The notes below the pieces were generated by a model, which did no database searches, had not been told where the DNA came from, and saw only the letters and a program-made list of their open reading frames with translations. The position numbers were made by a program, and so were the translations under genes. Shown here piece by piece: positions 12,640-25,156 of a stretch of 42,658 bases of DNA (positions are counted from its first letter, which is position 1; each line of letters opens with the position of its first letter). The DNA comes from an uncultured Gammaproteobacteria bacterium (lineage in GTDB: Bacteria > Patescibacteriota > Microgenomatia > Levybacterales > GWA1-39-11), in assembly GCA_964596415.1 (NCBI GenBank), contig CAZQSX010000005.1:1-42658 (forward strand), written 5' to 3'.

Positions 12640-13827
12640 ATGAATCCTCAAGAAGATGTTACGCAAGCGCTAGAATCAATTGAGCAACCCAAAATACTAT
12701 CTACTCCCTTTTTTAAAAAGAGAAATTTTATTATTTTATTTATACTATTTTTAAGTTTAGTCACTATATTTGGAGTTTTTGTTATTATTCAAAATTCAAC
12801 TTCACCTAAAAAAATAATTACAACTATCACTCCAACTCCAGTTCAATATGCAGAAGCGCAAAAGACCTGGCAAGTTAATATTTTATACTCCCCTTCATCA
12901 GAATCTTTTTTTCTTCAAGAACTTTCACTGAATGAACAAGGATTTAAGCAGAATTATACTGATGTCAATTCTCCTTATATTTTTACTGTTTATGATAGGG
13001 ATGAAAAAATTCTTTATTTTGCAAACGTGCCAATTGCTACAAGTATAGTTATCCCAGATGAATTTATTGATACCCCATTTGAAGACTCATTAAAAACTAA
13101 ACAGCTTGAGAGTTCATTTCAAATTCCTTATTTTGAAAAAGGCGTTACGTTTAAAATCTTTCGTAATGACACTGTTTTAATTCAAGGTGAATTTCCAGAA
13201 AGTGAAATAAGTTCAATACAGGAAGAAAATGAAAATCAGCTAAGTACTAAAATTGCGCAAAGTGAAACTCTGTGGTCACTTTCTGCAACATCTATTTGTG
13301 AAGACGGGAAGGTATTTATTAAATATGATTTTAACACTACAACTCCTGCTGTTATTTTTACACAAGATGTAGAGGATAAAAATGATCCTGCACAAGTGAC
13401 TATTTATGGCTCCATGGATGATAACAGTTGGGAGTCTGGAGGCGCACCATTAAAGCTAACGGGGGGTAGAGGTAGCTACGTGGCAAAAGCAAATTTAATC
13501 AACTGGGATCCTGTCAAATCAAATTATCAGCTTAGTTACAATGGTCCAGTAGGTTTTTTAAAAGGCAGAACGTATCTTGGAACAATTCAAACATCTGGGG
13601 ATTGGACAGATGAATGTGTGGATGTGGGATGCGTAGATGGTAATCCGCCAGAGAGCGGTTATGCAGAAACAACCGTTACGACAATGTCCGTGGCAGAGTG
13701 TCCTGATAAGGATGTAACTTCTGATCCTATTGAAGAAGGAGAAGCGCCGAATCAAATTTGTAAGCCTGATGCGCTTTGTTCAAGTGGCTCAAGCACACTT
13801 CAAATCTGCACATTCACCTGTGAATAA
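12640..13827 (+). CDS. hypothetical membrane-anchored exported protein with a Cys-rich C-terminus
   Basis: 395 aa with one N-terminal TM helix. TGTTATACT (12625-12633) lies 6 nt before the ATG. No family recognised. Confidence 0.6.
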   Translation: MNPQEDVTQALESIEQPKILSTPFFKKRNFIILFILFLSLVTIFGVFVIIQNSTSPKKIITTITPTPVQYAEAQKTWQVNILYSPSSESFFLQELSLNEQGFKQNYTDVNSPYIFTVYDRDEKILYFANVPIATSIVIPDEFIDTPFEDSLKTKQLESSFQIPYFEKGVTFKIFRNDTVLIQGEFPESEISSIQEENENQLSTKIAQSETLWSLSATSICEDGKVFIKYDFNTTTPAVIFTQDVEDKNDPAQVTIYGSMDDNSWESGGAPLKLTGGRGSYVAKANLINWDPVKSNYQLSYNGPVGFLKGRTYLGTIQTSGDWTDECVDVGCVDGNPPESGYAETTVTTMSVAECPDKDVTSDPIEEGEAPNQICKPDALCSSGSSTLQICTFTCE

Positions 13828-13830
13828 GTG

Positions 13831-13855
13831 CTGCTGTGCAGGGATTCGAATCCCA
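13831..13855 (-). other. tRNA-like T-arm plus 3' acceptor strand fragment (no cognate 5' half adjacent)
   Basis: Minus strand reads TGGGA-TTCGAAT-CCCTG-CACAGCA-G. The T stem matches that of the neighbouring tRNA-Gln except for G53 to A, which gives an A:C mismatch. Confidence 0.5.
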
Positions 13856-13922
13856 AACGGGCGGTGCTCGTCCCGCCAAGTCGGGACTGCGCGCCTAAAA
13901 CTGATCCAGATTAGGGGTTTTG

Positions 13923-13993
13923 CTGGGAGTCAGGGATTTGAACCCCAATAAACAGGTCCAGAACCTGTTGTCCTACCATTAGACGAACTCCCA
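13923..13993 (-). tRNA. tRNA-Gln (anticodon CUG), no encoded CCA
   Basis: Folded by hand: TGGGAGT TC GTC TAATGGTAG GAC A ACAGG TTCTGGA CCTGT TTAT TGGGG TTCAAAT CCCTG ACTCCCA G. All stems pair, U1-A72 and G73. Confidence 0.85.
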
Positions 13994-14042
13994 GCAAAAC
14001 CACTAAATTATCTTGTTGTCCTACTTTTGAGCTTGCGAAAAA

Positions 14043-14130
14043 GCAAGCTCGGCTTACCATGAGACGACACAGCATCGTTTGTTGTAATTAGTCTCATGGC
14101 AAGCTCGGCTTACCATGAGACGACACAGCA
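14043..14130. repeat. two perfect 32-nt direct repeats (14043-14074 and 14099-14130), 56-nt period
   Basis: GCAAGCTCGGCTTACCATGAGACGACACAGCA occurs twice. On the minus strand each copy starts TGCTGTG-TC-GTC-TCATGGTA, which resembles a tRNA 5' acceptor strand plus D arm. Confidence 0.9.
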
Positions 14131-14207
14131 ATGGTGTAGGTATTTTACTAAATACAAGACATATATTCCACTTGACGATGATATTTTAAGTTATATAAAC
14201 TATTAAC

Positions 14208-14417
14208 ATGAAAGAATTTTCTAAGTTTCTTTCCGGTCTTATTCTTGGAGATTTTCTAGTTGGTCTTTGGCTTTCAACTGCAGGTGACTTGCCTATGTCA
14301 TTTTTAGGTTTTCGTATTTCAGTGAGTTTTATACCTTTTTGGCTAGGATTTGATGCGGTGCTTTTTGCATTCTTGGTATGGTACGGTTGGGGGAGAAGAA
14401 AAAAGAAAAAAAAGTAA
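14208..14417 (+). CDS. small two-TM membrane protein with a poly-Lys tail
   Basis: 69 aa. TTGACG (14172-14177), 16-nt spacer, TATAAA (14194-14199), 8 nt before the ATG. Ends GRRKKKKK. Confidence 0.5.
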   Translation: MKEFSKFLSGLILGDFLVGLWLSTAGDLPMSFLGFRISVSFIPFWLGFDAVLFAFLVWYGWGRRKKKKK

Positions 14418-14455
14418 CTTGCCTTTCTTAGAAAATCGTATTAAAATCATTCACA

Positions 14456-15052
14456 GTGAATAAAAAGTTTATCATAGGACTTGTGGTAGTTGGCGTAGTA
14501 CTTGCTGGGGCATTCTTCTTTTTAATTCCTAAATCCTCTCAGCTTTCAGATAATGGAGATTCTACAACTGGAAAAGATCAAGACGCCATGGAGGTTGCTG
14601 ATTTGTTTACAAAAGCATTTACCGGAAATGAATCAATCAAGTGTACGTTTAGCGACAATGGTTCTACCGGAACTGCATACATAAAGCAAGGAAAAATCCG
14701 TTTTGATTCTGCAGGTGTTGATGGTGCGCAGTATGGAAATGCAATCGTAAATGGAAGTGTGGTTTATGTATGGCAAACAGGAAATAATGAAGGAATTATG
14801 ATAGATACTTCAAAATATCAATCCGCGAACGGAGGGCTACCAGATCAGGTTATGGACGCGGAAAAAATTAAACAAGAAGTTGAGAAAAATAAACCAAATT
14901 GTGTTAAGGAAAATATAGATGATAGTGTGTTTACTCCGCCATCAACTGTGAAATTTACAGATTATTCCTCTTTTATGAATCAACAAACTCAACCAACAGG
15001 CGCTATGACTCAAGAGCAGTTAGAAAACCTCATGCAGCAGTACCAACAGTAG
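14456..15052 (+). CDS. hypothetical exported protein (N-terminal anchor)
   Basis: 198 aa with a GTG start. TAAAAT (14442-14447) lies 8 nt upstream. No family recognised. Confidence 0.55.
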   Translation: MNKKFIIGLVVVGVVLAGAFFFLIPKSSQLSDNGDSTTGKDQDAMEVADLFTKAFTGNESIKCTFSDNGSTGTAYIKQGKIRFDSAGVDGAQYGNAIVNGSVVYVWQTGNNEGIMIDTSKYQSANGGLPDQVMDAEKIKQEVEKNKPNCVKENIDDSVFTPPSTVKFTDYSSFMNQQTQPTGAMTQEQLENLMQQYQQ

Positions 15053-24719: not shown

Positions 24720-24791
24720 GGCCCCATCGTCCAGTGGTTAGGACACCAGATTCTCATTCTGGGAACCGGGATTCGACTTCCCGTGGGGTCA
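24720..24791 (+). tRNA. tRNA-Glu (anticodon CUC), no encoded CCA
   Basis: Folded by hand: GGCCCCA TC GTCC AGTGGTTA GGAC A CCAGA TTCTCAT TCTGG GAAC CGGGA TTCGACT TCCCG TGGGGTC A. All four stems pair. Confidence 0.9.
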
Positions 24792-24823
24792 CTATCTTTC
24801 GCTAAAGCTACAGATAGCAAGCT

Positions 24824-25141
24824 ATGTACTATACGTACATCCTCAGAAACAGTAAAACCAACCGATATTATATCGGCTATACTCCAGATTTGAAAAATCG
24901 AATTAACATGCACCTCTCGGGAAAGGTCTTTTCAACAAAATCAAACCTTAATTATAAACTAGAATGGTACTGTGCGTTTCAAACTCGCGAGCAAGCTCTA
25001 GCTTTTGAAAAGTACCTAAAGAGTGGCTCTGGGGTAGCTTTCATGAAGAAGAGATTTTTCAAAGATAATGTAGCTTTAGTGAAGGATAATAATCTTAGCG
25101 GGATTCTTGCTGCTCGAAGCTCTAAAAAGAGCGAAGTGTAG
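24824..25141 (+). CDS. GIY-YIG nuclease family protein
   Basis: 105 aa. The YYTYILRN...RYYIGYTPDLKNRINMH...E pattern matches the GIY-YIG / UPF0213 fold. Confidence 0.8.
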   Translation: MYYTYILRNSKTNRYYIGYTPDLKNRINMHLSGKVFSTKSNLNYKLEWYCAFQTREQALAFEKYLKSGSGVAFMKKRFFKDNVALVKDNNLSGILAARSSKKSEV

Positions 25142-25156
25142 TCCCGTGGGGTCACT
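25142..25156 (+). repeat. distal copy of the tRNA-Glu 3' end (15/15 identical)
   Basis: Direct comparison with 24779-24793. Confidence 0.9.

Follow-up and report, generated by a model that had tools for sequence, protein, structure and literature searches.

A complete tRNA-Gln gene between the remnants of an older tRNA-Gln gene in a draft Patescibacteriota genome

Organization of the tRNA-Gln Locus

The locus considered here, positions 13,831 to 14,130 of contig CAZQSX010000005.1 (assembly GCA_964596415.1), belongs to a metagenome-assembled genome (MAG) labelled as an uncultured Gammaproteobacteria bacterium and placed by GTDB in the Patescibacteriota (Microgenomatia, Levybacterales, GWA1-39-11). 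The window, that is, the whole stretch of DNA that was analysed, is 42,658 nucleotides (nt) long, and its positions are given without a contig name; other contigs of the source genome carry C numbers, and G and L numbers stand for genomes and loci, respectively. The source genome (G000) is a draft of 977 kb in 38 contigs, 92.75% complete, with 42 tRNA genes. On the minus strand of the locus, a complete tRNA-Gln(CUG) gene, hereafter the inner gene, lies between pieces of a second tRNA-Gln(CUG) gene, the outer gene, and we call the whole arrangement the nest. Our reading of it, to which we give a probability of roughly three in four, is that a dead tRNA-Gln(CUG) gene houses the gene that replaced it.

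tRNA genes were called with ARAGORN, also in its intron and pseudogene modes, and scored with the Rfam tRNA covariance model RF00005 (gathering cut-off of 29 bits). As a reference for the outer gene, we took the uninterrupted 72-nt tRNA-Gln(CUG) gene of the congener G006 (locus L040) and searched it against the whole 977-kb genome. The features of the nest, in the direction of the tRNA genes, are as follows:

14141..14152, minus strand: promoter-like TTTAGTAAAATA box (extended -10), 10 nt ahead of the first 5' piece
14075..14130, minus strand: upstream tandem copy, a 56-nt unit (copy A of outer positions 1-20, then AGCCGAGCTTGC and the reverse complement of the D-arm)
14055..14074, minus strand: outer tRNA positions 1-20 (acceptor 5' strand TGCTGTG and D-arm as far as GGTA), 19/20 against G006
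14025..14054, minus strand: mini-hairpin element inserted in the outer D-loop behind GGTA (insertion 1; core AGC-NNA-GCTTGC and a second hairpin at 14050-14029)
14010..14024, minus strand: outer tRNA positions 18-31 (end of the D-loop, 3' strand of the D-stem, degenerate 5' strand of the anticodon stem)
13994..14009, minus strand: putative cassette leader, whose arm 14006-13994 pairs with the trailer and lengthens the inner acceptor stem by 13 base pairs (bp)
13923..13993, minus strand: inner tRNA-Gln(CUG), acceptor TGGGAGT/ACTCCCA, discriminator G, no encoded CCA (ARAGORN and Rfam)
13911..13922, minus strand: putative cassette trailer arm, which together with G73 (13923) pairs with the leader arm
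13898..13912, minus strand: outer anticodon loop with CTG and 3' strand of the anticodon stem, positions 30-44, 14/15 against G006
13861..13899, minus strand: copy of a dispersed hairpin repeat inserted in the outer variable loop (insertion 3; 8 copies in the genome, 2 in G006)
13831..13860, minus strand: outer 3' part, with the end of the anticodon stem, variable loop, T-arm, acceptor 3' strand CACAGCA and discriminator G

The original prediction, made from the letters of the sequence, had described several of these features, and all of them were recovered at the stated places. Its two identical 5' pieces are perfect 32-nt copies, its complete tRNA-Gln(CUG) is both called by ARAGORN and recognized by Rfam at 13993-13923, its 11-mer GTAGGACAACA, common to an outer piece and the inner tRNA, occurs at 14024 and 13976, and its T-arm-like hairpin followed by CACAGCA-G is present at 13860-13831, the two outer acceptor strands being perfectly complementary. 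Its extended hairpin does lie at 13899-13861, but it is one of the eight copies of the dispersed repeat and not an anticodon-like arm of a tRNA. The prediction had noted the lack of a 7-nt anticodon loop, and it overlooked the remnant of the outer anticodon loop with CTG that survives at 13912-13898. Finally, the disruption of a second Gln gene by the functional tRNA-Gln held, whereas the single insertion or duplication held responsible for it gave way to three separate insertions.

The Outer tRNA-Gln Gene

The search with the G006 gene returned these matches within the nest:

13856-13830, minus strand: tRNA positions 46-72, 26/27, E = 7.7e-7 genome-wide
14074-14055 and 14130-14111, minus strand: tRNA positions 1-20, 19/20 each, E = 0.012 each
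14024-14015, minus strand: tRNA positions 18-27, 10/10, weak on its own
13912-13898, minus strand: tRNA positions 30-44, 14/15, weak on its own

Positions 1-27, 30-44 and 46-72 of a tRNA-Gln(CUG) are thus all retained, collinear and on one strand, which, together with the E-value of the 46-72 match, places the pieces beyond chance resemblance. The G006 gene, from the same genus, has the identical acceptor pair TGCTGTG/CACAGCA and stands behind the same TTTAGTAAAATA box. When the outer pieces are joined in silico, 64 of 74 positions are identical to it. The broken second tRNA-Gln gene preferred by the original prediction is therefore borne out, both by this intact homologue with the same acceptor pair and by the inner gene being a different allele (see below); the uninterrupted counterpart that it had envisaged among relatives is the one of G006, recognized by sequence homology, with non-syntenic flanks.

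Three interruptions break up the outer gene, one in the D-loop (14054-14025), one in the anticodon loop (14009-13913) and one in the variable loop (13899-13861), and its decay goes beyond them. Position 14 is C in both 5' copies and A in the intact tRNA-Gln genes compared; positions 53 and 61 of the T-arm are mismatched (A53:C61); 3 nt are missing from the variable loop; and the 5' strand of the anticodon stem no longer pairs with its 3' strand. ARAGORN did not call a tRNA on the joined outer pieces, pseudogene mode included. On the native sequence, its intron and pseudogene modes called only the inner tRNA on the minus strand, and its loosest setting gave only spurious calls on the opposite strand. 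In addition, searches of the genome, at its completeness of 92.75%, found neither EndA (PF01974) nor RtcB (PF01139). Because of the mismatches, the deletion, the lack of a call after joining and the two enzymes not being found, the outer gene is, to judge by its sequence, a dead tRNA-Gln(CUG) gene.

In relatives, more than 20 loci have the TTTAGTAAAATA box ahead of tRNA-Gln or its first fragment, at a distance of about 10-40 nt. A strict sigma-70 scan does not report it, and no terminator was found in 13600-14400. We consider it as probably the promoter of the old gene, now driving the whole nest.

The Inner tRNA-Gln Gene and Its Paired Arms

The inner tRNA folds as a complete cloverleaf and scores 57.9 bits over model positions 1-71. 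It is the only tRNA-Gln(CUG) gene found in the assembly, a tRNA-Gln(UUG) gene being located on another contig. It resembles a gene from outside the genus: it is 97% identical to the tRNA-Gln(CUG) of G010, which belongs to a different genus, and 89% identical to the G006 gene over positions 8-63. Five of the seven acceptor pairs differ between the inner and outer genes, as does the anticodon stem; by this comparison, the inner tRNA is a different allele from the outer gene.

The inner gene is enclosed in a 20-nt inverted repeat with 95% complementarity. Its leader and trailer pair at 12 of 13 positions, the longest such pairing among the 42 tRNA genes of the genome, for which the median is 3; added to the 7-bp acceptor stem, the 13 leader-trailer pairs, discriminator included, give a helix of 20 bp. 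We aligned this helix in eight tRNA-Gln genes with comparable arms from five genera (alignment A2), using as a control the partner strand slid by 1-3 columns. In this alignment, 95.7% of the cells are paired, against 31-46% in the slid controls, and 14 of the 20 pairs change on both sides. G-U pairs occur on the tRNA strand, an indication that the pairing counts on this strand, either as RNA or as single-stranded DNA.

The insertion in the anticodon loop, which carries the complete inner tRNA, amounts to 102 nt and sits around outer position 32/33. The exact junction is ambiguous, since the outer piece 13898-13912 overlaps the last two bases of the trailer arm. Of the open reading frames (ORFs) near the insertion, one encodes a secreted orphan protein of 395 aa and the others encode small proteins, either membrane or secreted. 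Rfam searches over 13500-14500 returned no family besides tRNA, even at E-values up to 10. A tmRNA or tmRNA-like gene was considered and rejected: the genome has a normal tmRNA elsewhere (C1:29367-29781, 120.5 bits), and the acceptor has no G3:U70 pair.

Similar Loci in the Genome and in Relatives

The nest is not alone in its genome. At the tRNA-Thr(CGU) nest (C20:10570-10790), where the outer acceptor pair is GCCGCTT/AAGCGGC, outer and inner alleles are again distinct; within the outer D-loop, a mini-hairpin core precedes the arms between which the inner tRNA stands, and another mini-hairpin occupies the outer anticodon loop. The tRNA-Ile(GAU) nest (C10:31000-31320) likewise has distinct outer and inner alleles, with an 11-bp inverted repeat flanking the inner tRNA.

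The same holds for relatives. All eight helix-armed tRNA-Gln genes of the five genera have relics of an older tRNA-Gln directly outside their arms, located in the anticodon loop at 32/33 (window and G035), after the anticodon (G019), in the T-loop (G007 and G004) or near the 5' acceptor strand (G031, G033 and G012). In G035, a member of another genus, the putative cassette (L048) abuts the same outer site as in the window. In G019 (L012, C33, ~1444-1645), removal of a 118-nt insert located after the anticodon turns the outer tRNA-Gln(UUG) into a perfect tRNA, as a recent event would explain; GC-rich arms delimit this insert, inside which there is another tRNA-Gln(UUG). A different layout is found in G028 (L053, C4, ~64540-64850), where at least two or three relic units of tRNA-Gln, of ~120 nt each, are arrayed in tandem downstream of an intact tRNA-Gln(CUG); each unit lacks the 5' acceptor strand and has a hairpin insert in the D-loop, and a GIY-YIG ORF is located just upstream of the tRNA.

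GIY-YIG ORFs are also a recurrent neighbour of tRNA genes in the source genome: six of its seven small GIY-YIG ORFs directly adjoin tRNA genes with displaced, hairpin-bearing fragments. One of them is in the window itself, where a small GIY-YIG ORF, with its Pfam match at 24824-25024, comes after tRNA-Glu(CUC) (24720-24792); beyond this ORF, the final 14 nt of the tRNA are repeated near 25142. Five other tRNA genes of the genome share this layout. At the tRNA-Gln locus, displaced fragments with hairpin inserts (14054-14025 and 13899-13861) similarly adjoin an intact replacement tRNA (13993-13923), and no GIY-YIG match was obtained at 13800-14200. About a third of the tRNA genes of the genome have such tRNA fragments. 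Hairpin-directed single-strand DNA nucleases of the GIY-YIG family (Ssn) have been described by Chenal et al. (2025, PMC11893778), with no mention of tRNA genes.

A separate observation concerns tRNA-Gln genes that encode their CCA. In several genera (L037 in G003, L010 in G029, L043 in G008 and L055 in G053), such genes are immediately followed by a conserved stretch of ~100 nt, which resembles the end of an integrated element with tRNA-Gln as its attachment site.

Repeats Found within the Nest

Three kinds of repeats have accumulated in the outer gene. The first is the perfect 32-nt direct repeat formed by the two 5' pieces (14130-14099 and 14074-14043), spaced by 56 nt, from which we conclude that the second 5' piece is the product of a 56-nt tandem duplication. 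In the upstream copy, AGCCGAGCTTGC and the reverse complement of the D-arm give a 14-bp hairpin (14121-14091).

The second is the mini-hairpin of the D-loop. Its junction, GTAAGCNNAGCTTGC, is present in 10 copies in the genome, against none for the reversed control; among 300 other genomes sampled across the phylum, 14 carry one or two copies, with four matches for the reversed control. In the short form of the element, a reverse-complemented copy of the target bases that precede the core comes after it; this form is accompanied by a target duplication, 27 nt long at a non-tRNA target. The long form (about 32-39 nt) is found in loops of other outer tRNA relics as well as in frame in three protein genes, where it is always translated as K-Q-S-L-x-S-...-G-L. 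One of these genes encodes a glycosyltransferase (C4:6192-7316, L057) in which the 39-nt element adds 13 residues that are absent from four congeneric orthologues; this presence/absence proves that the mini-hairpin is an insertion in a coding gene. The other two encode GrpE, with the element near the N-terminus, and an oxidoreductase (sites near C1 85421 and C1 55003).

The mini-hairpin is also tied to the 5' ends of tRNA genes. For at least 12 of the 42 tRNA genes, the initial 11-21 nt of the gene are also present as a copy ahead of it, and about half of these copies carry the mini-hairpin core. The copies usually begin exactly at +1 of the mature tRNA (e.g., C4:8293-8430, C21:13989-14113, C9:28633-28759 and C12:16389-16510), and many have GGTA as their last bases, after which come the core and the D-arm in reverse complement. 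The same design beside tRNA genes exists in MAGs labelled as Candidate Phyla Radiation. A scan of the species genomes for GGTAAGCNNAGCTTGC gave mostly chance matches, the tRNA-linked design being recognized at 6 of 80 loci among the matches listed.

The third repeat, in the variable loop, has a 42-nt consensus with conserved flanks and a covarying 6-bp stem with compensatory changes, usually followed by AAG and a variable second hairpin. Its other copies are located at C19:321-359, C19:3827-3864, C4:23048-23086, C13:25079-25117, C23:7215-7253, C29:6975-7013 and C14:23184-23222, and the copies match no Rfam family. The genome encodes five Y1-transposase-like (RAYT-type) genes (C16:8991-9242, C9:8618-8872, C19:14712-14909, C34:4088-4363 and C12:11397-11633), four of which are flanked on both sides by a distinct hairpin repeat of their own, an indication that several REP-RAYT-like pairs coexist. 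The hairpins of the tRNA-Gln nest flank none of the five. A reverse transcriptase, a possible source of RNA-derived fragments, was not found in the genome.

A Dead Gene Probably Holding Its Own Replacement

The comparisons presented above show that a 102-nt segment, with a complete tRNA of a different allele between paired arms, interrupted the anticodon loop of a resident gene, and that this old gene then decayed and gathered repeats; for the mechanism of the insertion, the steps that follow are those that we infer. A resident tRNA-Gln(CUG) gene with the acceptor TGCTGTG/CACAGCA, located behind a TTTAGTAAAATA box, would have been hit by the 102-nt insertion, which would have destroyed it and supplied a working tRNA in the same stroke, the old halves being reduced to a leader and a trailer. 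The inner tRNA would probably be transcribed from the old promoter (14152-14141) within a precursor of ~300 nt, and no terminator-like site lies between that box and the inner tRNA. In such a precursor, the inner tRNA would sit at the tip of the 20-bp helix and could be released by the ordinary tRNA end-processing enzymes; since no CCA is encoded, it would be added after processing. The outer halves would have decayed later, through the mini-hairpin in the D-loop, the repeat in the variable loop, the 56-nt tandem duplication, point changes and a 3-nt deletion.

As to the nature of the inserted segment, we lean slightly towards the view that a helix-armed tRNA is a mobile or recombining cassette, akin to the nuclease/hairpin elements that split tRNA genes but devoid of a gene of its own, that enters single-stranded loops of cognate tRNA genes; only those insertions that bring a replacement would survive selection. 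Such a cassette might be moved in trans by nucleases or recombinases, and the tRNA-adjacent GIY-YIG nucleases of the genome would be the obvious candidates. A broader proposal, to which we attach somewhat less than even confidence, is that helix-armed tRNA genes form a distinct class of miniature mobile elements with a tRNA as sole payload, which would home into cognate tRNA loops, kill the resident gene and substitute for it, resulting in a Russian-doll turnover of tRNA genes across the Patescibacteria. As the element would both kill and replace the resident gene, its payload would act as the antidote to its own insertion.

One has to keep in mind several points that weigh against this reading. 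The putative cassette has no credible ORF, no clear target-site duplication and no integrase nearby. The covarying helix could reflect a need of RNA processing instead of mobility. The arms resemble those of congeneric UUG cassettes and the tRNA body resembles the CUG gene of another genus, so the history may include gene conversion and not one clean insertion. The transcription start, the co-transcription and the processing of the nest are, for their part, what we infer from the DNA. The orthology between the outer gene and the G006 gene is argued from their sequences, with non-syntenic flanks: in a synteny search, the 395-aa neighbour proved to be an orphan, the homologues of the 198-aa neighbour are distant and none stands beside tRNA-Gln, and the sole gene in common with the G006 locus in tblastx is YibE/F, 5-7 kb away. 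Finally, an uninterrupted outer gene, i.e., the empty-site allele of the locus, was not seen in contigs of three independent DNA metagenomes (wastewater 2021, wastewater 2023 and aquatic 2024), in which stretches without contig cover carry no information. No run of RNA was found to cover the locus either; the single run that might represent RNA is probably DNA, and what it matches is tRNA sequence of other organisms.

Alternative Explanations

The nest could also have been built on the spot, slippage or template switching having duplicated the resident gene within itself before decay, with no mobile cassette involved. In favour of this are the fresh 56-nt tandem duplication at the locus, the hairpins whose second arm copies the neighbouring sequence and the partial copies of the tRNA's own 5' end that are common in the genome. 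However, a self-duplication sits badly with an inner gene that differs from the outer one in five of seven acceptor pairs and in the anticodon stem, that is 97% identical to the gene of another genus when the outer pieces match the gene of a congener (19/20 and 26/27), and whose arms have similar counterparts at four different outer-tRNA sites in five genera. We therefore regard this local origin as improbable.

Neither do we expect, at a similarly low level, that the tRNA pieces are scars of an integrase-type island, namely att-site duplications left by an element integrated in tRNA-Gln and mostly deleted since. tRNA genes are classic integration sites, the conserved sequence directly 3' of tRNA-Gln in relatives resembles the end of an integrated element, and a patch of accessory genes adjoins the locus. 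Still, the pieces are not duplicates of the working tRNA, being from another allele with five of seven acceptor pairs different; the inner gene is complete and not a hybrid; both junctions fall in the anticodon loop, on either side of a complete tRNA; and the insertion measures only 102 nt, with no integrase gene in it or next to it.

The third alternative, which the original prediction had entertained in the form of a split, intron-bearing or permuted precursor, keeps the outer gene functional: the intervening sequence, inner tRNA included, would be removed as RNA and the outer halves joined or held together. The outer acceptor strands are indeed perfectly complementary, and a 311-nt region is predicted to fold as RNA with its outer ends paired (-132.9 kcal/mol, z of -8.2). 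In the predicted fold, one long helix runs without a break beneath the inner tRNA, and no pair of 3-nt bulges is evident in it, although no dedicated bulge-helix-bulge (BHB) search was made. Against such a precursor, the joined outer sequence of the window is not a tRNA for ARAGORN, whose intron and pseudogene modes made no call for the outer tRNA; one of the three interruptions is a dispersed repeat and another is a mini-element also inserted in coding genes; cuts by RNase P and RNase Z would leave arms on the halves; and the outer tRNA would be redundant with the inner one.

The splicing enzymes point the same way. In addition to EndA and RtcB not being found in the genome, a survey of 61 relatives found RtcB in three, G019 among them. 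G019, with its outer tRNA-Gln(UUG) perfect after removal of the insert, speaks to that extent for splicing, but EndA was not found in it either and its RtcB gene lies among phage-like genes (DUF5131 and NT5C), a context that lends splicing no support. A functional split or intron-bearing tRNA is barely open in G019, and for the window we hold it to be very improbable.

A chimeric join of the tRNA-Gln alleles of two strains, to which a draft genome in 38 contigs would be prone as repeats around tRNA genes can break or mis-join assemblies, is hardly worth retaining, since contigs from the three independent metagenomes reproduce the junctions of the nest with 0-2 differences. Among them, contig X5 spans 13852-14072 and the aquatic contig X2 spans 13840-14150, and metagenome records 19 and 25 span the inner tRNA and both its flanks. 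Contig X2 skips exactly 14043-14098, one 56-nt unit, which may represent either a true one-copy allele or an assembly collapse, at k = 31, of the 32-nt repeat.

Comparison with Known Systems

tRNA genes are the classic targets of integrative elements, which leave behind duplicated tRNA segments (att sites). The nest resembles them in the choice of a tRNA gene as target, in junctions located in anticodon or T loops and in the preservation of tRNA function; however, those elements deliver a matching 3' part of the gene, whereas the nest holds a complete foreign tRNA, with no integrase and no island, and with the old gene halved around the insert.

SegB, a free-standing GIY-YIG homing endonuclease of the tRNA gene cluster of phage T4, is involved in marker exclusion from phage to phage. 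It is likewise selfish DNA that spreads by targeting the regions of tRNA genes, a functional copy of the tRNA being inherited alongside it; unlike the nest, it has an endonuclease gene, and it makes neither nested tRNAs nor arms. Closer at hand, the GIY-YIG/tRNA layouts of the source genome share with the nest a displaced, hairpin-bearing tRNA fragment beside an intact replacement tRNA, and the GC-rich arms around the G019 insert are of a kind also seen in such cassettes. There, the nuclease gene is present; the nest has none, and its payload is a whole tRNA placed between paired arms in an anticodon loop.

The Rickettsia palindromic elements are ~100-150 nt long. The mini-hairpin, a second tiny element exposed by this analysis, is comparable to them as a short palindromic repeat inserted in frame in protein genes and also found in RNA genes. 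It is much shorter (about 30-39 nt), its junction follows GTA and, unlike the Rickettsia elements, it often comes with a target duplication and with an arm copied from the target.

Disrupted tRNA genes are otherwise best represented in archaea, with split and tri-split genes and transposing BHB introns (Fujishima et al. 2009, 2010, as cited in PMC10714607). As far as these are presented in that article, they have in common with the nest several non-canonical interruption sites, short structured inserts that look mobile and complementary leader sequences. They differ from it in that their halves are spliced by EndA and a ligase; the nest has a decayed outer gene, the machinery was not found and it is the insert that carries the working tRNA.

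In the full-text literature that we searched, no description was found of tRNA genes nested in tRNA genes, or of such cassettes, in bacteria. The nest would be kin to tRNA-targeting selfish DNA, the replacement of a tRNA within a tRNA being apparently undescribed. If the cassette reading is true, tRNA genes of these tiny genomes would be replaced horizontally, one by one, by a vehicle without any gene of its own, tolerated as it repairs the damage that it causes. This would also explain many of the tRNA fragments, odd leaders and contig breaks near tRNA genes in Patescibacteria assemblies. In annotation, such fragments and nests can pass for split or intron-bearing tRNA genes; for tRNA processing, the question raised is how a tRNA is released from a 20-bp leader-trailer helix that covaries across genera.

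Other tRNA Genes of the Assembly

ARAGORN called no tRNA-Phe, tRNA-Trp or tRNA-Ala(UGC) in the assembly, and no hidden interrupted copies of them were seen. These three genes are probably in assembly gaps, because the tRNA loci of this genome are rich in repeats. Finally, a Ser tRNA cluster contains a tRNA-like match (C28:6278-6349) that is weak, at 33.9 bits, and whose anticodon region is odd.

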